A stretch of 64,000 nt of DNA from Alphaproteobacteria bacterium (lineage in GTDB: Bacteria > Pseudomonadota > Alphaproteobacteria > SP197), in assembly GCA_964291265.2 (NCBI GenBank), contig OZ219747.1, positions 480,001 through 544,000 of the forward strand, in the 5' to 3' direction. The notes beneath the pieces were generated by a model. That model had not been told where the DNA came from and made no database searches. It saw nothing but the letters and a program-made list of their open reading frames with translations. The translations under genes and the position numbers were made by a program. Position 1 is the first letter of the stretch. Every line of letters starts with the position of its first letter. Below, one piece after another: positions 2,602-34,713 of the stretch.

Positions 2602-3612
2602 ATGGCACGCAAAGCAACGTATCAGCAGGCAATCAATGAGGCCCTCGCCCAGGAGATGGAACGTGACGAGACGGTCATCGTCATGGGCGAGGATGTCGCC
2701 GGCGGCGCCGGCACGGATGGCGAGCGCGATGCCTGGGGAGGACCACTCGGCATCACCAAGGGGCTCTACGCCAGGTTCGGCGAACGCGTCATGGACACGC
2801 CGATCAGCGAGTCGGCCTTCATCGGGGCGGCCGTCGGCGCCGCGACCGCGGGGTTGCGTCCGGTGGCCGAGCTCATGTTCATCGACTTCATGGGAGTCTG
2901 CTTCGACCAGATATTCAATCAGGCCGCCAAGTTCCGTTACATGTTTGGCGGCAAGGCGCAAACGCCGGTGGTCATCCGCACCATGTATGGCGCGGGCCTG
3001 CGGGCGGCCGCTCAGCATTCGCAGTGCCTCTACCCGGTCTTCACGCACATACCCGGGCTGAAGGTCGTGACCCCGTCCACTCCCTATGATGCCAAGGGCC
3101 TTCTGATCCAGGCGATCCGCGACAACGATCCGGTGATCTTCTGCGAGCACAAGGCGCTCTACACACTGGAAGGCGATGTTCCCGAAGAACCCTATGCGCT
3201 TCCCTTCGGTGAAGCCGGTATCGTTCGCGAAGGCGGCGACGTCACCATCGTGACTCTCGGGCGCATGGTTCACGTGGCGGTCGAAGCGGCTGGCGCGCTG
3301 GCGAAGGACGGTATCGAGTGCGAGATTGTCGACCTGCGCACGACCTCGCCGCTCGACGAGGACAGCGTCATCGAATCAGTCGAGAACACGGGCCGTCTCG
3401 TGGTCCTCGACGAGGCAACTCCTCGCTGCAACATGGCCACCGACATTGCGGCCCTGGTGAGCGAGCAGGCTTTCGGCGCCCTCAAGGGACCGATCAGGAG
3501 GGTGACGGCGCCACATACGCCGGTGCCCTTTGCCAGCACCCTGGAAGACCTCTACATCCCTGATTCCGCAGCGGTGCAGAAGGCTGTGAAAGCAGCCGTG
3601 GGTGCCTCCTGA
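2602..3612 (+). CDS. acoB: Acetoin dehydrogenase E1 beta
   Basis: MGEDVAGG, DTPISESAF, DQIFNQAAK, AAQHSQ; follows acoA. Confidence 0.9.
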   Translation: MARKATYQQAINEALAQEMERDETVIVMGEDVAGGAGTDGERDAWGGPLGITKGLYARFGERVMDTPISESAFIGAAVGAATAGLRPVAELMFIDFMGVCFDQIFNQAAKFRYMFGGKAQTPVVIRTMYGAGLRAAAQHSQCLYPVFTHIPGLKVVTPSTPYDAKGLLIQAIRDNDPVIFCEHKALYTLEGDVPEEPYALPFGEAGIVREGGDVTIVTLGRMVHVAVEAAGALAKDGIECEIVDLRTTSPLDEDSVIESVENTGRLVVLDEATPRCNMATDIAALVSEQAFGALKGPIRRVTAPHTPVPFASTLEDLYIPDSAAVQKAVKAAVGAS

Positions 3613-4727
3613 TGAGTGAAGGCATACGCTCCATCTGCATGCCCAAGTGGGGCCTTTCCATGAAGGAGGGGAAAGTGGCGGCATGGCTCGTGGAAGAAGG
3701 CCATGCCGTCGCGCCCGGCGACGAGGTCATCGACATCGAGACCGAGAAGATCGCCAGTGCGGTGGAGGCGGTCGACGGCGGCCTATTGCGGCGCCGCGTG
3801 GCGGACGTGGGCGAAGTCCTGCCGGTCGGCGCCCTTCTCGGGATCGTTGCCGACGACAGTGTCGACGATACCGACATTGAGTCCTTCGTCGCCGACTTTC
3901 AGGCGAACTTCGTGCCGCCCGATGATGACGACGAAGAAGAAAGCGGTCCGGCAACCGAGACCGTGGAGGTGGCGGGGCGCACGATCCGCTACCTGACGAG
4001 GGGTGACGGCGGCACACCGGTCATCCTCGTTCATGGATTTGGCGGCGATCTCCACAACTGGCTCTTCAATCATGAGGCGCTTGCCGGGTCGCGCACGGTT
4101 CATGCTCTCGACCTGCCGGGTCATGGCAGTTCCAGCAAGGAGGTCGGCGACGGCTCGATCGGTTTCCTTGCCGACATCGTCCTCGGCTTCGCCGATGCCC
4201 TCGGAATCGACAGGGCACATCTTGTCGGCCACTCGATGGGCGGCGCCGTTTCGCTTGCCTGCGCACGGTCGGCGCCGCAGCGTGTGGCATCGCTTACCCT
4301 GATCGCAAGCGCCGGTCTCGGCAGGGAGATCGACGGGGACTACCTCGACGGCTTCATCTCCGCCGAACGCCGCAGGGACCTCAAGCCTCATGTCGAAAAG
4401 CTGTTCAGTGATCCAGCGCTCGTGACGAGGCAGATCGTCGACGATCTGCTTGCCTTCAAGCGGATCGACGGCGTGACCGCGGCGCTCGGCACGATCAGGG
4501 ACGCCCTTGCGCCGGGTGGCGAGCAGGCCGAGATCATGCGCGAGGTGGCAGGCAGCGTGCCGACTCTCGTCATCTGGGGGTCCGAGGACCGGATCATTCC
4601 CGCATCCCACGCGCATGGCCTGGCGAACGGCGTGTCCTCGACAGTGCTCGACGGTCAGGGTCACATGGTGCAGATGGAAGCTGCAACCGACGTCAACCGT
4701 CTGGTCGCGGACCACGTGGGCGCCTGA
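3612..4727 (+). CDS. acoC: Acetoin dehydrogenase E2 (lipoyl domain plus alpha/beta-hydrolase fold)
   Basis: MPKWGLSM...IETEKI lipoyl-Lys, HGFGG, nucleophile GHSMGG, GHMVQME; TGATG coupling to acoB. Confidence 0.9.
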   Translation: MSEGIRSICMPKWGLSMKEGKVAAWLVEEGHAVAPGDEVIDIETEKIASAVEAVDGGLLRRRVADVGEVLPVGALLGIVADDSVDDTDIESFVADFQANFVPPDDDDEEESGPATETVEVAGRTIRYLTRGDGGTPVILVHGFGGDLHNWLFNHEALAGSRTVHALDLPGHGSSSKEVGDGSIGFLADIVLGFADALGIDRAHLVGHSMGGAVSLACARSAPQRVASLTLIASAGLGREIDGDYLDGFISAERRRDLKPHVEKLFSDPALVTRQIVDDLLAFKRIDGVTAALGTIRDALAPGGEQAEIMREVAGSVPTLVIWGSEDRIIPASHAHGLANGVSSTVLDGQGHMVQMEAATDVNRLVADHVGA

Positions 4728-4943
4728 CGCCGGGACAGGCGTATTCCGCACGACGCTGCGGCGCCGGGACCTCTCACCGGCTTAGCACCGGAACACGGTT
4801 GCGCGAGATCGGTTCGTTCGACGACATCGGCCACGCCGGGGCCTTGAGGTTTCGCACGGGGACTGTTCAGGAGGGCGGTCATAAAGGGGTTCGACGATCT
4901 TGCCCGCTGCATTGCGTTGCCGGAGTCGTCCTGCTCGTTCTCC

Positions 4944-6719
4944 GTCGGGTAGGCCACTGGCGCGCGCATCCGTAGGCAGAGGCTTTGTCCGTCACCGCTC
5001 TTTCGATTGCGGGCGGGGTCGCAGTTCTCCCATAGACCACGTTTCCAGCAGTCGGGTAGGCCGCTGGCGCGCGCATCCGTAGGCAGAGGCTTTGTCCGGC
5101 ACCGCTCTTTCGATTGCGGGCGGGGTCGCAGAACTACCATAGACCACGTTTCCAGCAGCCTCCCTAAAATTCCGTACGTCCGGTTTTCCCGGGTACGGCT
5201 TCAAGCATCAGGCACCCACTTGGAGTTCGGTGCGGAGCCTTCCGCCGAACACGCCATGGTCAAGGCTGACCCGACCATACCCACGGCATCTCCGAGCGTT
5301 TGCTCCGTCCTTCGACCTTGCAGTCTGTCGGTCGGTGCCGGTCTCTGAGTACCGACTTGACCTGCCGCATAAGCCACCTGAGCCCTGAGGTCCTCGCTCA
5401 GGACGGGTTGTGTTGTCCCGCCCGTCAACGCTTACTCGACCTCATCCGCCAGTCAGGAGGACTCCGCGTCCTTTCCCAGTCCTGGTTATAGACGCGGTCC
5501 TTGACATTCAAGGGTCACTTCATCCTGTCTGTCCTCCTCACCTTCCGGCCTTTCACTGCTGTACTGTCCCGGATTGCCGTCGTCTCTACCACGGGGAACC
5601 CGATGCGTGCTCCCCAGTTCTTCCGCATCGACTCTGGCCACCAAGCTGGGGGCAGGCCCTTGGCGTTCCCAACACCCCACAAGTCAGCTTCATGTGGGAA
5701 ATTTCATTTTCGAGGCTTCGTACAATCGTTCGCTTTCGCTACGGCCCTCCGGTTCGCTCGCCGCCCTGGCTGACCAGACCAACTGGACACTGCGTTCCAG
5801 CCAGCCCACAGCGGCTTCTACATCCCAGCTCGCTGGCCCAGGGTCACCCCTGTACCAGTGGGATATGCTACGGCGCCAAACTGGGAATTGCGCCGGCGGG
5901 ACTTTCACCCGCAAGTACAGCAGCTAGACTCGCTGCACGCCCCCCTAAAATTCCGTACGTCCGGTTTTCCCGGGTACGGCTTCAAGCATCAGGCACCCAC
6001 TTGGAGTTCGGTGCGGAGCCTTCCGCCGGACACGCCATGGTCAAAGCTGACCCATCCATACCCACGGCATCTCCTTGCGTTTGCTCCGTCCTTCGACCTT
6101 GCAGTCTGTCGGTCGGTGCCGGTCTCTGAGTACCGACTTGACCTGCCGCATAGGCCACCTGAGCCCTGAGGTCCTCGCTCGGGACGGGTTGTGTTGTCCC
6201 GCCCGTCAACGCTTACTCGACCTCATCCGCCAGTCAGGAGGACTCCGCGTCCTTTCCCAATCCTGGTTATAGACGCGGTCCTTGACATTCAAGGGTCACT
6301 TCATCCTGTCTGTCCTCCTCACCTTCCGGCCTTTCACTGCTGTACTGTCCCGGATTGCCGCCGTCTGTACCCTGGGGAACCCGATGCGTGCTCATCAGTT
6401 CTTCCGCATCGACTCTGGCCATCGGGCCGGATCCACGCCCTTGGCATTCCCGACCACCCCACAAATCAGCTTCGTGTGGGAGCATCATTTCGTGGCTTCA
6501 TCCAATCGTTCGCTTTCGCTACGGCCCTCCGGTTTGCTCGCCGCCCTGGCTGACCGAACCGGTTGGGCACTGTGTCCCAGCCAGCCCACAACGGCTTTCT
6601 ACGTCCCAGCTCGCTGGTCCAAGGTCGCCCCTGAACCAGTGGGATATGCTACGGCGCCAAACTGACAATTGCGCCGGCGGGACTTTCACCCGCAAGTACA
6701 GCAGCTAGACTCGCTGCAC
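4944..6719 (-). mobile_element. Outer ORF-less group II intron (888 nt: 6719-5939 plus 5050-4944), interrupted by a nested intron
   Basis: Minus strand begins GTGCAGCG; domain V GAAGCCGTACCCGGGAAAACCGGACGTACGGAATTT with AGC triad; domain VI with bulged A (4950); ends CCTACCCGAC; EBS1 (6429-6434) and EBS2 (6481-6486) match exon AGCATC-G-GGATCC. Confidence 0.88.
5051..5938 (-). mobile_element. Inner ORF-less group II intron (888 nt) inserted in domain VI of the outer intron
   Basis: Same GTGCAGCG start, DV, DVI with bulged A (5057) and CCTACCCGAC end; no target duplication; EBS1 GCCCCC (5648-5653) pairs with flanking GGGGGC. Confidence 0.9.
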
Positions 6720-7084
6720 GGATCCCGATGCTTGGCTGTCCGAGGAATTCGCCGCTCTCATCTTCGAAGGCTCGTGGCGCATGGGGTGTGACGGTAGAAC
6801 TCCGAACGGAGTCGGGATCGGGCGAAGTCGCCCTGCACACCCCATCGCCTGATACGTCGGCGTCACAAGGGAATGGAGCCGTCGCGGCGATTGATCGAGA
6901 CCACCGGTCCGCGATCTTCGAGCGCGTTCCGCGTTGTCGGCCGATCACAGAGGTAACAGAACGCGTCGTGGAGTGCAGAATCTTGGACTGTGGCCATCCT
7001 CGTTCTTCCGCAACCGGAACGTTGCGGCGTGGACATCCGTCATACAATCGGTCTACATTGTGGCCCAATCAGGAGGATCGACCC

Positions 7085-7342
7085 GTGCGCACCGTCGTTC
7101 GGGCCCGCATCGACGAAAGCACCAAGCGGGAAGCCGCCGCCGTACTCGACGCGATCGGCCTCACCGTGTCCGATGCCTTCCGCCTGATGATGGTGCGGAT
7201 CGCGGCCGAGAAACGCCTGCCCTTCGAGCCCCTGGTGCCGAACGCGGAGACTATCGCGGCCATGGAGGCCGCGCGGCGGGGCGACTTGGTCACGGTCGGC
7301 GATGTCGACGGCCTGATGGCCGACCTCCATGCGGACGATTAG
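7085..7342 (+). CDS. dinJ: RelB/DinJ family antitoxin
   Basis: VVRARID...AAAVLDAIGLTVSDAFRL...LPFEPLVPNAETIAAM; AGGAGG RBS at 7071-7076, GTG start. Confidence 0.85.
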   Translation: MRTVVRARIDESTKREAAAVLDAIGLTVSDAFRLMMVRIAAEKRLPFEPLVPNAETIAAMEAARRGDLVTVGDVDGLMADLHADD

Positions 7343-7734: not shown

Positions 7735-9684
7735 CCGAAGTTCCGGACGATTTCAGCGGCAGAGTCACGATAACCGGTTGATTGTGTTGGCAAAATAGCG
7801 CGATGACGGCGCGAGAATGTTCCCATGTAACGGCGAAGTTTTCCCTTGACACGGTGGGCTTACGCCCCCATATACGTTGCCATGTACGTAGACATCGTCC
7901 CCAACCGTAACTCACCCCCCGCCGTCCTCCTGCGAGAGGGATGGCGCGAGAACGGCAAGGTCAAGAAGCGCACCATCGCCAATCTCTCCTCCTGGCCCAT
8001 GGAAAAGGTCGAGACCCTGCGGCGGTTCTTGAAGAACGAACCCCTCGTCGGTCGTGACGACGCCTTCGACATCGTCCGCTCCCTACCCCATGGGCATGTC
8101 GCCGCAGTGCTGGGAACCCTGAAGAAGCTGGGACTGGACAGGCTGATCGACCCGAAGCCCTCGCCTGAGCGCGATCAGGTCCTGGCCATGATCGTGGCAC
8201 GCATCCTCGAGCCCGCCTCGAAGCTGGCCACGGCCAGGGGGCTGGCCGAGGCCACGGCGGTCAGCACCCTGGGCGAGGTCCTCGATGCGGAGATGGACGA
8301 GGACGCCCTCTACGGCGCCATGGACTGGCTCCTGGAGCGTCAGGAGAGGATCGAGCGGTCCCTGGCGAAGCGGCACCTCGAAGAGGGCTGCCTGGTGCTC
8401 TATGACCTGACCTCGGTATGGATGGAGGGGAGAGCGTGTCCCCTGGCAAGGAGGGGTCATTCCCGGGATGGCAAGAAGGGCAAGCTGCAGATCGAGTTCG
8501 GCCTTCTGTGCGATCGGGACGGCTGTCCAGTGTCGGTGGAAGTGTTCCCCGGCAACACGGCGGACCCCGGGACGGTGGCATCACAGATCACCACGCTGCA
8601 GGAGCGCTTCTCCCTGGCGAAGGTGGTGCTGGTGGGAGACCGGGGGATGCTGACCGAGGCGCGCATACGCGAGGAGGTGAAGCCTGCGGGCCTGGACTGG
8701 ATCAGCGCCTTGAGGGGACCGGCCATCCGCGCCCTTGTGGAGGCCGGCGACGTCGAGATGTCGCTCTTCGACGAGAGGGACCTGGTGGAGATCACCAGCG
8801 ATGCGTATCCCGGCGAACGCCTCATGGTCTGCCGCAACCCCCTGCTGGCCGAGGACCGGGCCCGCAAGCGCCAGGAACTGCTCGAGGCCACCGAGGCCCT
8901 GCTTGAACCGATCGCCGCAGCGACACGGCGCGACAAGCGCCGTCTCAAGGGTGCCGACAAGATCGGGGAGCGGGTCGGCAAGGTCATCGGTAAATACAAG
9001 ATGGCGAAGCACTTCACGTGGTCCATCGACGACGAGGGTGTCTTCACCTATGGGCGCGATGAGGTTGCCATCGCCGCCGAGGCCAGGCTCGACGGCCTCT
9101 ACGTGATCCGCACCAGCCTGCCGCAGAGCGAGCTCGACGGTCCCGGCACAGTGCGCGCCTACAAGCGGTTGAGTTCGGTGGAACGGGCCTTCCGCAGCCT
9201 GAAGACCGTGGATCTGAAGGTCCGTCCCGTCTACCACCGCACCGAACCCCGGGTCCGCGCCCATGTCTTCCTGTGCATGCTCGCCTACTACGTGGAATGG
9301 CACATGCGCCAGAAACTGAAGCCCATGCTGTTCGACGACGAGGATGCCGAAGGCGCCGAGGCCCGGCGGCCGTCCGTCGTGGCGCCGGCAGAAGTCTCGG
9401 CGAGCGCCCGGGCCAAGGCGGCAACGAAGAGGACGCCCGGGGGTGATCCGGTGCACAGTTTCCGCACCCTCCTCGATGATCTCGCGACCATCACCCGCAA
9501 CACCGTGGCGCCCCGCCTTGCGGGCGCCAAACCCTTCCAGGTCACCACGCGGCCCACGCCGCTCCGGAAAAAGGCCCTGGACTACCTCGGCATACGCCTG
9601 CAGCATTCCCAGTAGCGACACACCCGATTTTTTCAAACGTCAATACATTCATAACGATACGTCTGATCGGTTCTGGAACTTCGG
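7735..9684 (+). mobile_element. IS1634-family insertion sequence (1950 bp)
   Basis: Terminal IRs CCGAAGTTCC/GGAACTTCGG, 6-bp ATTAGA repeats at 7729-7734 and 9685-9690. Confidence 0.9.
7882..9615 (+). CDS. IS1634-family DDE transposase
   Basis: MYVDIVPNRNSPPAVLLRE, LYDLTS, GHSRDGK, VGDRGM, VERAFRSLK, HVFLCMLAY. Confidence 0.93.
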   Translation: MYVDIVPNRNSPPAVLLREGWRENGKVKKRTIANLSSWPMEKVETLRRFLKNEPLVGRDDAFDIVRSLPHGHVAAVLGTLKKLGLDRLIDPKPSPERDQVLAMIVARILEPASKLATARGLAEATAVSTLGEVLDAEMDEDALYGAMDWLLERQERIERSLAKRHLEEGCLVLYDLTSVWMEGRACPLARRGHSRDGKKGKLQIEFGLLCDRDGCPVSVEVFPGNTADPGTVASQITTLQERFSLAKVVLVGDRGMLTEARIREEVKPAGLDWISALRGPAIRALVEAGDVEMSLFDERDLVEITSDAYPGERLMVCRNPLLAEDRARKRQELLEATEALLEPIAAATRRDKRRLKGADKIGERVGKVIGKYKMAKHFTWSIDDEGVFTYGRDEVAIAAEARLDGLYVIRTSLPQSELDGPGTVRAYKRLSSVERAFRSLKTVDLKVRPVYHRTEPRVRAHVFLCMLAYYVEWHMRQKLKPMLFDDEDAEGAEARRPSVVAPAEVSASARAKAATKRTPGGDPVHSFRTLLDDLATITRNTVAPRLAGAKPFQVTTRPTPLRKKALDYLGIRLQHSQ

Positions 9685-29661: not shown

Positions 29662-31032
29662 ATGCCCGACATGCCGACCAACTCACCGATCGTTGCCGCC
29701 TGGTTGGAGAAGACAAGGGGGTCGCGCGATCTCGCGGGCGAGGCCGGCGGGATCTTCCCCAGTGGCGTGACCCACGACTCCCGTTATCGGGAGCCTTATG
29801 GACTCTATGTCGATCACGCCCGGGGGAGCCGCAAGTGGGATGTCGACGGCAACGAGTATGTCGACTTCTTTGGTGGCCACGGCTCGCTCATCCTCGGACA
29901 CGGCAATCCGGCAGTCGTCGAGGCGGTGAGGCGGGCTGTTGGCGAGGGCACCCACTTCGGCGCCGGTCACAGGGCGGAAGTGCGCTGGGGCCGCCTGGTC
30001 TGCAACCTCGTGCCTTCGGCGGAACGTGTGCGGTTTGTCTCCTCGGGCACCGAGGCAACCCTGATGTGCCTGCGCCTCGCCCGCGCGTTCACGGGCAGGC
30101 GCAAGATCCTCCGCTTCACCCATCATTTCCATGGCTGGCACGACCACGTCGCCTCGGCCCGGATCTCGAGCGGCGGCGCCCATGCAGCGGGCGTCGTCCC
30201 GGGGATCGAGGAAGACCTCGTCGTTGCCGACTCCGCTGACCGCGCCGCGCTCCGGGAAGCGTTCCGCACCCATGACGACATCGCCGCTGCCATCATCGAA
30301 CCGACAGGGGCCACGTTCGGCCGGCTTCCGGTCGACCCGGACTTCGTCCGGCTCTTGCGCGACGAGACGGAACGTCACGGAGCCCTCCTCATCCTCGACG
30401 AGGTGGTGACCGGATTCCGCGTGTCACCGGGAGGCGCCCAGGAGTCGCTCGGCATCACGCCCGATCTCACGGCCCTGGCAAAGATCCTGGCCGGCGGCTT
30501 TCCCGGCGGCGCGGTGGCCGGGCGCCGGGACGTCATGGAGATGCTCGATTTCGAGGCCACGCGACGGGATGGCCGCACCAAGGTCGACCACTTCGGCACC
30601 TTCAACGCCAATCCCGTTTCGGCCGCCGCAGGCATCGCCGCCCTGGACCAGATTGCCGACGGCGCCATGTGCGAGCGCGCCAGCGACACGGCGGCCGCGC
30701 TCCGGGACGGCATCAACCGCGTCGTCAGCGAGGCCGGCGTCTCCTGGGCCGCCTATGGAACCCACTCGTCCTTCCACATCTTTCTCAATCCCCGGCGCCT
30801 CGACGTGGCGCCGGGATCCTTCGACGGTTCCGGCGTGGCGCCCGATGATCTCCTGTACCTGCCGAAACCACTCGCCACCCGTTTCGATCTCGCCATGATG
30901 CTGGGCGGCGTCACCATGGGCGGATCGCCCGGCGGATACGTGTCGGGCGTCATGGAGGGCGCCGATGTCGACGTGACGGTGGAAGCGGTCCGCGGTGCGA
31001 TCCGCATGCTGCGGGCCGAGGACGCCCTGTGA
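29662..31032 (+). CDS. Class III aminotransferase (GSA-aminomutase-like)
   Basis: WDVDGNEYVD, SSGTEA, FHGWHD, IIEP, LDEVVTGFR, PLP Lys LAKILAGG, GTFNANP. Confidence 0.88.
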   Translation: MPDMPTNSPIVAAWLEKTRGSRDLAGEAGGIFPSGVTHDSRYREPYGLYVDHARGSRKWDVDGNEYVDFFGGHGSLILGHGNPAVVEAVRRAVGEGTHFGAGHRAEVRWGRLVCNLVPSAERVRFVSSGTEATLMCLRLARAFTGRRKILRFTHHFHGWHDHVASARISSGGAHAAGVVPGIEEDLVVADSADRAALREAFRTHDDIAAAIIEPTGATFGRLPVDPDFVRLLRDETERHGALLILDEVVTGFRVSPGGAQESLGITPDLTALAKILAGGFPGGAVAGRRDVMEMLDFEATRRDGRTKVDHFGTFNANPVSAAAGIAALDQIADGAMCERASDTAAALRDGINRVVSEAGVSWAAYGTHSSFHIFLNPRRLDVAPGSFDGSGVAPDDLLYLPKPLATRFDLAMMLGGVTMGGSPGGYVSGVMEGADVDVTVEAVRGAIRMLRAEDAL

Positions 31033-32250: not shown

Positions 32251-34713
32251 ATGACGACAGGCATAACGTGGGCCGGTACGTCCGGCGACGACACCAAAGT
32301 CGGCGGCGACGGCGACGACACGCTGGTAGGCAACGCGGGCGACGACACGCTGAGTGGCGGCAAGGGCGCCGACACGTTGACGGGCGACGATGTGGATTTC
32401 CTGGTCAGCGGCGACGACACGCTCAATGGCGGCGAGGGCGACGATACCCTCGACGGCGGCAACGGCGACGATACGCTCCATGGCGACGAGGGCGACGACA
32501 CTCTGTATGGCGGCGACGGCAACGACACCCTCGACGGCGGCGTGGGAGGCGACCTGCTCTACGGCGGCAACGGCAACGATACGCTCCGTGGCAACGCGGG
32601 CGACGACACGCTGAATGGCGGCACGGGCGACGACGCGCTGTATGGCGGCACGGGCGTCGACACCCTCATCGGCGGCGCGGGGGATGACACCCTCACCGGC
32701 GGCGCGGGCGACGACTTTCTGTTCGGCGGCGACGGAGACGACACGTTCGTGTTCAGAGCCGGAGACGGCGACGACATCATAGGCGGGTTCCAGGACGGCG
32801 ACATCATCAAGTTCGACGGCGTGGCCGGGGTGGGCCAGTTCAGCGACCTGACGGTGGAGGAAAAGGACGTTACCAACAGCGGGGGTGAAAAGACCGGCAC
32901 CAAAGTCGTCATCACCTACGGGGCCAACGGGGACACGATCACGCTGAACGGCCTGGGCTTGGGGGATATCGGCTCGGCCGACTTCGCGTTTGCGGACACC
33001 TCGGGCAACTACGAGCTGACCGGCGGCGCGGGCGACGACACCCTCACCGGCGGCACCGGCAGTGACACCCTCACCGGCGGCGCCGGCGACGACACCCTCA
33101 CCGGCGGCGCCGGCGACGACACCCTCACCGGCGGCGCCGGCGACGACACATTCGTGTTCAGAGCCGGGGACGGCGACGACACGATCACCGATTTCCAGGA
33201 TGGCGACACGATCAAGTTCGACAGCGTGCCCGGGGTGGACGATTTCAACGATCTGACGGTGCATCAAGTTGGCGCCGATGTCGTCATCACCTACGGCGCC
33301 GGCGGGGACCGGGGAACGATCACGCTGACAGACGCAGACCTCGGGGATATCGGCACGACAGACTTTACGTTTGTCGCCGCCCCCGCTCCCCGCCCCGCCT
33401 CCAATCCCGTGCGCGAGATCCCGGGGAAGACGCTGACGGGCACCTCGGGCAACGACGAGCTGATTGGCGGCGAAGGCGCCGACACGATCAGTGGTGGCGA
33501 AGGCGATGACAAACTGGTGGGCAACGGAGGCGACGACACCCTTAATGGCGACGGTGGCGATGACACCCTCTATGGCAACGCGGGCAACGACAAGCTCTAT
33601 GGCGGCGACAACACTGGCAATGGCTGGGAGACTCTCTACGGCGGCGAGGGCGACGACACGCTGTATGGCCAGGCAGGTGACGACACGCTGTATGGCCAAG
33701 CCGGCGACGACACCCTGTATGGCGGCACGGGCGAGGACGCTCTTCACGGCGGCAACGGCGACGACACGCTCGATGGCGGCGCCGGCGACGACAGGCTATG
33801 GGGCAAAACCGGCAACGACACGTTCGTGTTTACGGGCGGGGACGGCGACGACACGATCATCGACTTCCAGGACGGCGACAAGATCAAGTTCGACGGCGTA
33901 CCCGGAGTGACCACGTACGATGACCTGAATGTCGCTGTCGACCTTACTGAAAACCAGACCGTCATCACCTACGGCACCGGAGAGAACCGGGGTACGATCA
34001 CGCTCACCGGCGTGGTTTCTGGCTTCGACGCGAATGATGTCGAGATTGTCTCCCCCGACGACCTTGTACGCACCACTACCCCAGTGTCGAAGACGGGCAC
34101 GTCGGCCGACGAAAAGCTCAATGGCGGCGATGGCAACGACACGCTCAACGGTGGCGGCGGCAATGACCGCGTGAGAGCGTTCAAGGGCGACGACACGATC
34201 AATGGCGGCACCGGCGACGACTGGCTGGCCGGGCTCAAGGGCGACGACACGATCAACGGCGATGCCGGCGACGACACGCTCCGCGGCGGCGCCGGCGATG
34301 ACATTCTGAACGGAGGCGCCGGCCACGACAGGCTCAATGGCGGCGCGGGCAATGACACCCTGACGGGCGGCGACGGCAATGACAAGCTGTTTGGCAGCGA
34401 CGGCAATGACACCCTGACGGGCGGCGTCGGCGACGACTGGCTCCAGGGTGGCGCCGGCAACGACACGCTGACCGGCGGGGCCGGCAACGACACCTTCCTC
34501 TACAACGGAAGGGGCGATGACACCATCTCGGACTTCGCTGCGGGGGACACCATCGCGTTGAGGAACATTGATGGGGTCACCGCGTTCAGCGACATCACCG
34601 TTGATTCCACGGAAGGCGGCTTCGAGATCACCTTCGGTGACAGCAGCGCCGACACCCTGACCGTCACGTCCAGCCTGCAGGAACTTGACGCCGAACACTT
34701 CGACTTCCTGTGA
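32251..34713 (+). CDS. RTX-type calcium-binding repeat protein, probable T1SS substrate (820 aa)
   Basis: Dozens of GGxGxDxL nonapeptides in four blocks, each closed by a GDDTIxDFxxGDxI...ITYG module; C-terminal HFDFL; GGAG RBS. Confidence 0.9.
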   Translation: MTTGITWAGTSGDDTKVGGDGDDTLVGNAGDDTLSGGKGADTLTGDDVDFLVSGDDTLNGGEGDDTLDGGNGDDTLHGDEGDDTLYGGDGNDTLDGGVGGDLLYGGNGNDTLRGNAGDDTLNGGTGDDALYGGTGVDTLIGGAGDDTLTGGAGDDFLFGGDGDDTFVFRAGDGDDIIGGFQDGDIIKFDGVAGVGQFSDLTVEEKDVTNSGGEKTGTKVVITYGANGDTITLNGLGLGDIGSADFAFADTSGNYELTGGAGDDTLTGGTGSDTLTGGAGDDTLTGGAGDDTLTGGAGDDTFVFRAGDGDDTITDFQDGDTIKFDSVPGVDDFNDLTVHQVGADVVITYGAGGDRGTITLTDADLGDIGTTDFTFVAAPAPRPASNPVREIPGKTLTGTSGNDELIGGEGADTISGGEGDDKLVGNGGDDTLNGDGGDDTLYGNAGNDKLYGGDNTGNGWETLYGGEGDDTLYGQAGDDTLYGQAGDDTLYGGTGEDALHGGNGDDTLDGGAGDDRLWGKTGNDTFVFTGGDGDDTIIDFQDGDKIKFDGVPGVTTYDDLNVAVDLTENQTVITYGTGENRGTITLTGVVSGFDANDVEIVSPDDLVRTTTPVSKTGTSADEKLNGGDGNDTLNGGGGNDRVRAFKGDDTINGGTGDDWLAGLKGDDTINGDAGDDTLRGGAGDDILNGGAGHDRLNGGAGNDTLTGGDGNDKLFGSDGNDTLTGGVGDDWLQGGAGNDTLTGGAGNDTFLYNGRGDDTISDFAAGDTIALRNIDGVTAFSDITVDSTEGGFEITFGDSSADTLTVTSSLQELDAEHFDFL

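Follow-up and report, generated by a model that had tools for sequence, protein, structure and literature searches.

The 64,000-nt stretch of alphaproteobacterial DNA analyzed here (the window) carries a group II twintron in which one ORF-less intron lies within the branch helix of its own sister. By its predicted pairings, the inner intron is a sister that has been retargeted from the exons of the outer intron to the junction between the outer's domains V and VI (DV and DVI). Six identical copies of it occur in the genome, each of them inside an outer copy.

Results

An intron inside the branch helix of its sister

The outer intron consists of 6719–5939 (781 nt) joined to 5050–4944 (107 nt), 888 nt in total on the minus strand, and the inner intron occupies 5938–5051, also 888 nt and also on the minus strand. 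A first-pass annotation made from the sequence had proposed two complete group II introns with these limits, and alignment and junctions reproduced them exactly. The two are 93.3% identical (831/891 aligned columns), and both start with GTGCAG and end with CCCGAC. As had been claimed, the inner lies between GGGGGC and TGCTGG in the outer DVI basal stem; the outer lies between GGATCC and GGAGAA, and neither junction shows a target duplication. The insertion follows the first 7 nt of the stem's 5′ strand, at a point four pairs above the bulged A. Taking the inner out gives back a complete 888-nt outer, and a natural empty copy is also present in the genome, as expected of a twintron. The parts of the locus are as follows.

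5939..6719, minus strand: outer intron 5′ part, domains I–V and the first 7 nt of the domain VI 5′ strand; RF02003 match at 6514–6695
5051..5938, minus strand: inner intron, complete, ORF-less, 888 nt; RF02003 match at 5734–5914; six genomic copies identical
4944..5050, minus strand: outer intron 3′ part, remaining domain VI with the branch A (4950) and the AC end
3612..4727, plus strand: flanking gene, acetoin dehydrogenase dihydrolipoyl acetyltransferase subunit; NF011457 above cut-off; uninterrupted
7097..7342, plus strand: flanking gene, RelB/DinJ-family antitoxin; TIGR02384 above cut-off; uninterrupted

The site is thus intergenic, with both flanking genes on the strand opposite to the introns. 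A promoter scan returned none on the intron strand and one plus-strand site, at chance level. Elsewhere in the window, a long array of 27-nt repeats (32257–34438), probably a repetitive surface protein gene, lies between two direct-repeat copies of at least 300 nt, at 30142 and 34948.

Four sequencing runs (X1–X4), all from one study that may include the source sample, were searched for the nesting junctions. A contig from X4 spans the outer-5′/inner junction with 232 nt on its short side, and contigs from X1 and X2 span the inner/outer-3′ junction without differences, with a short side of only 25 and 29 nt (bar, 31 nt). In X1, the junction contig at window 5026–5086 has a depth of roughly 65 times its flank, against about 5.5 times in X2; depth here is not copy number, and the kind of run is unrecorded. 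The first-pass annotation had also suggested looking for an empty allele in related genomes or reads. This search came back negative: the 22 genus relatives searched match the neighboring gene only, and the empty-site joint of the window locus was not found in the four runs.

An assembly artefact is unlikely. The 781-bp and 107-bp blocks do resemble direct repeats, but we give next to no credence to an artefact or to a plain tandem duplication of these blocks. The inner and outer differ precisely at the exon-binding sites EBS1, EBS2, and EBS3, each set fitting its own junction, and the same nesting recurs six times at five loci with different flanks and once more in a second genome. Furthermore, an outer copy without an inner exists in the genome, and a short-read contig spans the 5′ nesting junction.

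Fold and class of the two introns

Both introns match RF02003 (group-II-D1D4-4, Rfam) with 68.0 and 66.7 bits against a gathering score of 49, whereas RF00029 (Intron_gpII, DV–DVI) gave no match among those listed, even at E ≤ 10. Of the two kinds of Rfam model that the first-pass annotation had proposed to apply with Infernal, the domain I–IV model therefore recognizes the introns and the DV–DVI model does not. The miss is probably due to the atypical DV 3′ strand and the DVI of about 110 nt. The proposed six-domain fold was recovered as the consensus of an alignment of 14 family members; of its 247 predicted pairs, 71 show both-sided changes, counted without shuffle controls.

Details of the 3′ domains also agree with what had been noted. 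DVI has a bulged A 7 nt from the intron end, at window position 5057 in the inner and 4950 in the outer, followed by an AC terminus, and DV keeps its AGC triad with a non-standard 3′ strand (GUACGGAAUU). The triad and the AC bulge are invariant in 14 of 14 aligned rows, most of which were retrieved by a DV pattern. The intron start, GUGCA, is a one-base variant of GUGYG, and its A5 is invariant in the 14 rows. Neither intron encodes a reverse transcriptase (RT), as stated before; the longest stop-free sense stretch is 77 aa in each. Both are classed as ORF-less group IIB introns, the subgroup being the one indicated by the EBS1, EBS2, and EBS3 pairings below.

5949..5982, minus strand: outer domain V, with AGC triad, GAAAA loop, AC bulge, and atypical GGAAUU 3′ strand
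5168..5201, minus strand: inner domain V, equal in sequence to that of the outer
5054..5164, minus strand: inner domain VI, long (~110 nt), branch A at 5057; its own site, GGAGGC, has one mismatch to its own EBS1

Predicted pairing of each intron with its target

The assignment of the inner as a retargeted sister comes from the exon-binding sites, which pair with the intron-binding sites (IBS) of different targets in the two introns.

6429..6434, minus strand: outer EBS1, GGATCC; 6/6 pairs with IBS1 at 6720–6725
6481..6486, minus strand: outer EBS2, GATGCT; 6/6 pairs with IBS2 at 6727–6732
6367, minus strand: outer EBS3, C; pairs with IBS3 G at 4943
6720..6732, minus strand: 5′ exon target of the outer (IBS2, spacer, IBS1), intergenic
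5648..5653, minus strand: inner EBS1, GCCCCC; 6/6 pairs with the outer DVI 5′ strand GGGGGC
5700..5705, minus strand: inner EBS2, GAAATT; 5 Watson-Crick pairs and 1 G·U with the outer DV 3′ end and linker; register ± one base
5586, minus strand: inner EBS3, G; G·U wobble with IBS3 T at 5050
5939..5952, minus strand: target of the inner in the outer; IBS1 at 5939–5944 (DVI 5′ strand), IBS2 at about 5947–5952 (DV 3′ basal strand and J5/6)

The same rules hold across the family. Among 15 distinct EBS types, EBS1 and IBS1 form 83 of 90 possible Watson-Crick pairs (88 with G·U), while permuted pairings averaged 36 and peaked at 61, so that 0 of 100,000 reached 83. For EBS3 and IBS3, 12 of 15 types are Watson-Crick, and 37 of 100,000 permutations were as good. 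The collapsed chimeric row L111 was left out of these tests, and related introns are not independent of one another. EBS2 forms 4–6 Watson-Crick pairs when the best register is chosen, the permutation tests covering EBS1 and EBS3.

The 14-nt target of the inner occurs seven times in the genome, always within an outer copy, and six of these are filled. The inner is therefore a dedicated specialist, found only inside sisters. Its own DVI site has an A where the outer has G, which weakens the EBS1 duplex from −12.5 to −6.2 kcal/mol, and none of the six inners has been invaded by another inner. In this genome, this one base may confer self-immunity on the inner. Self-immunity was rejected as a general property: in the second genome the EBS1 of the inner fits its own site better than that of the outer (−10.3 vs −9.4), and the same A is found in copies that are not nested in a sister DVI (L070, L140–L142, L153).

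Copies in the genome and their insertion sites

A search for further genomic copies, another of the proposed checks, found six inners and seven outers. The inners are 100% identical, and every one is at the outer DVI site. The outers are that of the window, three other singles, one head-to-tail pair, and one empty copy (C2:3658598). The empty copy is interrupted in domain VI, 20 nt downstream of the inner site, by a 1,948-bp IS1634-type element with an 8-bp duplication. The window itself has an IS1634-family transposase at 7846–9615, the same type of element, and in a remnant at C2:1767668 an IS-like end follows domain VI.

Paralogs of the outer targets that lack an intron are present for a fibronectin/autotransporter gene (5 paralogs), a transposase gene (at least 6, antisense), and a repeated element end, and at these empty sites the flanks join precisely with no duplication. 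At C2:3117383–3119158, a twintron lies in sense within a fibronectin-III/autotransporter frame of about 1,870 codons; removing it restores the sequence of the five empty paralogs. At C2:3769211–3772762, two complete twintrons lie head to tail at one target, antisense in a transposase gene, and this tandem junction is also seen at a loose end in run X1. Tandem outers are to be expected: EBS3 of the outer reads a G, which is also the first base of the intron, and the outer's target would thereby survive insertion. By the same reading of the bases, the target of the inner would not survive the inner's own insertion.

The outer at C2:1366526–1368300 represents a distinct subtype, A, with its own EBS set and a domain I that differs by about 10%, and with a 3′ half like that of the other outers. 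It reads as a recombinant that still fits its own target. A 5′-truncated copy directly adjoins an A-type target, which is what incomplete reverse transcription would leave.

Orientation relative to replication

With the origin and terminus placed by GC skew alone, the filled outers, six in number, are all oriented in the G-rich (leading) sense, and the single empty outer is oriented the other way. Filled and empty outers compared by themselves (6/0 vs 0/1) give p = 0.14. Among empty paralogous target sites, 17 of 21 are in the opposite orientation, and over all loci the difference between filled and empty is significant (5/1 vs 4/17, p = 0.008); restricting the test to loci with paralogs makes it borderline (p = 0.053). 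The same strand bias is seen in an RT-bearing intron of this genome (15/17) and in its ORF-less derivative (14/16). Since introns whose protein lacks the endonuclease are primed at replication forks (PMC4424553), the bias fits homing here. Orientation is not the sole explanation for the empty outer, as the IS1634-type element is there too and n = 1. Taken together, the EBS–IBS pairing, the precise empty paralogous targets, and the strand bias support the reverse-splicing origin that had been proposed from the precision of the insertion.

A proposed route of spread for the inner intron

The account that we favor, and consider probable, is that the inner enters each sister in a separate homing event by reverse splicing, probably at the replication fork and with an RT borrowed from another intron. 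The inner would have arisen from an outer-like copy through changes in EBS1, EBS2, and EBS3. To splice, its EBS1 and EBS2 would have to capture the very strands that build the base of the outer's DV and the DVI stem; its excision would then restore the outer, which could splice and move empty. The inner would re-invade new outer copies, making the sisters a renewable landing site. The protein is most likely to be the abundant endonuclease-minus maturase-RT of the genome's other intron family, as no other intact RT was found there.

Separate and recent homing is favored because the outers vary while the inners do not. In the five filled outers of one subtype there are 13 variable sites, at 9 of which the allele is not that of the inner, and in their inners there are none (binomial p = 0.0002 and 0.004). 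In Thermosynechococcus elongatus, identical inners in divergent outers were taken as a sign of recent independent insertion (Mohr et al., PMC2882425). The same contrast argues against a single entry of the inner followed by movement of the 1,776-nt twintron as one unit, through the outer's EBSs and with the inner looped from domain VI, since inner and outer should then vary equally. The outer DVI basal stem is predicted to be able to pair across the insertion, six of the seven outers are filled, and the lone empty one is IS-disrupted and could be a relic. Moreover, ‘zombie’ twintrons that splice as one unit are described in plant mitochondria (PMC7049729). We nevertheless judge movement as a unit to be quite improbable. 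Perfect EBS1 pairing and an intact branch point set this inner apart from the degenerate inner of the cox1i1149g2 zombie, and the empty copy and the window copy share two alleles that are unlike the inner's and unlike those of a degenerate remnant.

Another possibility is that reverse splicing took place once and that gene conversion between outers then copied the inner without an RT. The outer copies carry mutually incompatible allele patterns that are not tree-like, and gene conversion therefore acts on the family; it could also spread or homogenize the inner. The distinct domain I of outer A, joined to a 3′ half like the others, is in keeping with this, as are the 781 and 107 nt of homology that flank the inner. 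However, gene conversion should ignore replication orientation, yet the lone empty copy is the lone opposite one (n = 1), and the outers are still polymorphic within 100 nt of the nesting site (positions 691 and 865). We therefore regard copying by gene conversion as an unlikely source of the six inners.

Splicing order

It is likely, from the predicted structures, that the inner splices before the outer, as the first-pass annotation had inferred. Pairing of the inner's EBSs with IBS1 and IBS2 excludes the outer DVI stem and DV base, and the EBS loops of the inner would be transcribed some 500–600 nt before the outer 3′ piece, so that the inner would usually go first. In a partition fold of the whole twintron, the outer DVI strand found no usable pairing. 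The order is not forced, because the outer basal stem can form around the insert: in a two-strand cofold, the 10-nt tail of the outer and its 3′ piece can form the DVI basal stem at −43.7 kcal/mol, against −33.3 kcal/mol for the 3′ piece alone.

A putative helper reverse transcriptase

The earlier statement that the window contains no RT holds and can be widened: across the whole genome, none of the introns found to carry an RT belongs to this RNA family. RVT_1 matches in the genome number 18, namely 16 full-length copies of one maturase-RT plus fragments. This maturase-RT passes TIGR04416 and has no HNH domain (Pfam). Fourteen of 15 copies are identical over 1.4 kb, so the RT has been as recently active as the inner. 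The RNA of the RT intron shows no detectable similarity to the intron family, and the family profile matches no RT locus in the genome. A domain IV protein-binding motif common to the family and the RT intron was considered and rejected, as it scored at shuffle level in 11 members (14–99 of 100 shuffles reached the score). Compared with introns of the TeI3 type, the family has no closely related ORF-bearing intron in the same genome; it does share with them insertions with good EBS–IBS pairing despite having no intron-encoded protein.

The search for a cognate RT was extended outside the genome. None was found in 83 genome matches to the family (flanks for 80), 12 metagenome matches, or 60 relatives, nor among 30 RT loci from 5 host genomes. 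Transposase-like insertions were present in the longer family copies, and L153/L158, a candidate RT-bearing member, is an antisense neighbor of an RT intron and not part of one.

That the protein of an unrelated intron serves the family is, in our estimate, somewhere between an even proposition and a somewhat likely one. The clade of the abundant RT, taken in a wide sense, is present in six of six host genomes examined, all of them family-bearing, and those RT introns whose RNAs weakly match the family profile fall in other RT clades. We tentatively take the abundant RT to be class E-like and the nearest RNAs to be class F-like. For this step only, the alternative is that the helper is a closer cognate RT, since broken or lost or on unassembled DNA, with the abundant RT playing no part. 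The ORF-less bacterial introns on record almost always work with the protein of a related intron (PMC4424553), and a truncated RT at C2:1340273 is nearer to the RTs of the weakly matching introns (on a long branch, with 37% of columns filled). However, the RNA of that truncated-RT intron does not match the family profile, and no ORF-bearing member appeared in any of the matches and relatives above. The genome, furthermore, is listed as 100% complete in 2 contigs, and identical inners point to recent mobility. A closer cognate helper is accordingly conceivable and somewhat doubtful.

Other retroelements in these genomes deserve mention. The second intron family in this genome is expanded, with 17 RT-bearing and 16 ORF-deleted copies of its domain V motif. 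A third lineage (C2:1340273, 1376033, and 2248455) comprises one truncated RT and two copies with the ORF start only; its copies lie within members of the RT-bearing family, and the two loci read share one insertion site. At L172 (genome G002), an RT is accompanied by a small upstream accessory-like gene and a nearby repeat-bearing gene, and the locus presumably resembles a diversity-generating retroelement.

The family in other genomes

A DV pattern scan gave the 83 genome matches, and a DIII pattern the 12 metagenome matches; plasmids gave no family match. The family is widespread. Uninterrupted full-length members measure about 825–920 nt, the closer ones are 74–82% identical, and they are ORF-less wherever seen. 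Members are often multi-copy with different flanks, and many lie within the RNA or the RT genes of other introns. Four of them (L111, L070, L084, and L088) apparently target a domain I motif that is conserved in other group II introns, and L111 resembles a twintron, seated in domain I, that recombination has collapsed. Bacillota/Clostridiales records contain a distant intron lineage (L115, L116, L131) whose domain V is atypical in the same way; its member L116 has no ORF, is matched by the family profile along most of its length, and lies directly before an RT ORF.

DVI nesting is rare elsewhere: its junction was not found in 400 further genomes from the class, and among 54 distinct DV context strings from outside this genome, 1 is DVI-nested (truncated loci may count twice). 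This is L055, in genome G061, a Paracoccaceae MAG, where the inner of a second sister pair (93.3% identical) occupies the DVI of its outer in an identical register. That inner shares its EBS2 core with the inner of the window, and its EBS3 (G) mismatches the present first base (G) of the 3′ piece. Each pair groups by genome (100/100), with a cross-pair identity of 75%; therefore either the specialist arose twice or conversion homogenized each pair. We tentatively entertain, at somewhat less than even confidence, a broader picture: a long-lived, protein-less lineage with no ORF-bearing member that hijacks the RT of an unrelated class, retargets freely, and has given rise to at least two sister-DVI specialists, in which prior excision of the parasite would gate both the splicing and the mobility of each sister.

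Discussion

Twintrons of Euglena with the inner intron in domain VI exist. The literature searched yielded no group II twintron whose inner intron lies in the basal stem of DVI, and no bacterial one with a domain VI site; passages of PMC5572947, PMC3534033, PMC8742464, and PMC4028801 name no domain VI insertion site. Already described are bacterial twintrons, ORF-less inners, an ORF-less outer (TeI3h), self-invasion, and insertion into domain V.

The closest parallel is T. elongatus, where the ORF-less F3 (TeI3) lies inside TeI4a–e and the ORF-less TeI3h (Mohr, Ghanem, and Lambowitz, 2010, PMC2882425). There, too, the inner and outer are related, the EBSs are retargeted, identical inners occupy diverged outers, and an ORF-less inner has moved in trans (PMC2882425). 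The T. elongatus site is in domain IV at the start of the ORF, and cognate proteins are in the genome (PMC2882425), whereas here the site is the catalytic DV–DVI junction, neither partner has an ORF in any copy, and the search turned up no RT intron whose RNA is similar. Similarly, the Euglena gracilis psbF twintron has its inner in a catalytically essential 3′ domain (Copertino and Hallick, 1991, via PMC8393795), though in domain V and in a chloroplast gene (PMC8393795). The ‘zombie’ cox1i1149g2 of Lycopodiaceae resembles the window twintron in having an inner that closely copies its outer (Zumkeller et al., 2020, PMC7049729), but that inner is in domain IV, degenerate, and unspliced (PMC7049729). 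We rejected a zombie status for the window twintron, whose inner has an intact DVI and branch A, 6/6 EBS1 pairing, and recent spread.

Among bacteria, Trichodesmium T.e.I7/T.e.I8 is a group IIB twintron with sequential splicing in vivo (Pfreundt and Hess, 2015, PMC4649490). Its partners are distantly related and both protein-coding, with the inner in domain I (PMC4649490). In 2015, a bacterial twintron in a protein-coding gene was called unique to Trichodesmium (PMC4649490); the twintron at C2:3117383 likewise interrupts a protein-coding gene in sense. In Methanosarcina acetivorans, nested introns likewise use introns as a perpetual landing site through repeated homing (Dai and Zimmerly, 2003, via PMC4424553), but there the targets are related intron ORFs, according to the title as cited in PMC4424553, and not the branch helix. 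C.te.I1 of Clostridium tetani is, like the family described here, an ORF-less bacterial intron with no related protein in its genome (PMC4424553). It is known for alternative 3′ splice sites (PMC4424553), whereas the present family shows multi-copy, EBS-guided insertion at many sites.

It has long been proposed, and is restated in PMC4649490, that inner introns are kept because they land where the outer depends on them for its own splicing. With its landing site at the DV–DVI junction, the twintron described here is a clean natural test of that idea, for which a single genome supplies as controls one copy that is empty, two that stand in tandem, and one that interrupts a gene. An ORF-less intron in bacteria almost always depends on a protein encoded by a close relative, and few such introns escape notice except where domain V departs from the norm (PMC4424553); RF00029 is the model on which one large survey is built (PMC8919778). 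The present family has an unusual domain V, is missed by RF00029, and is clearly mobile, and this genome holds no RT intron related to it. Should its mobility depend on an unrelated maturase, the family would show, in a living system, a single protein acting in trans on separate ribozyme lineages, which is a stage frequently assumed in accounts of how a shared splicing machinery arose.
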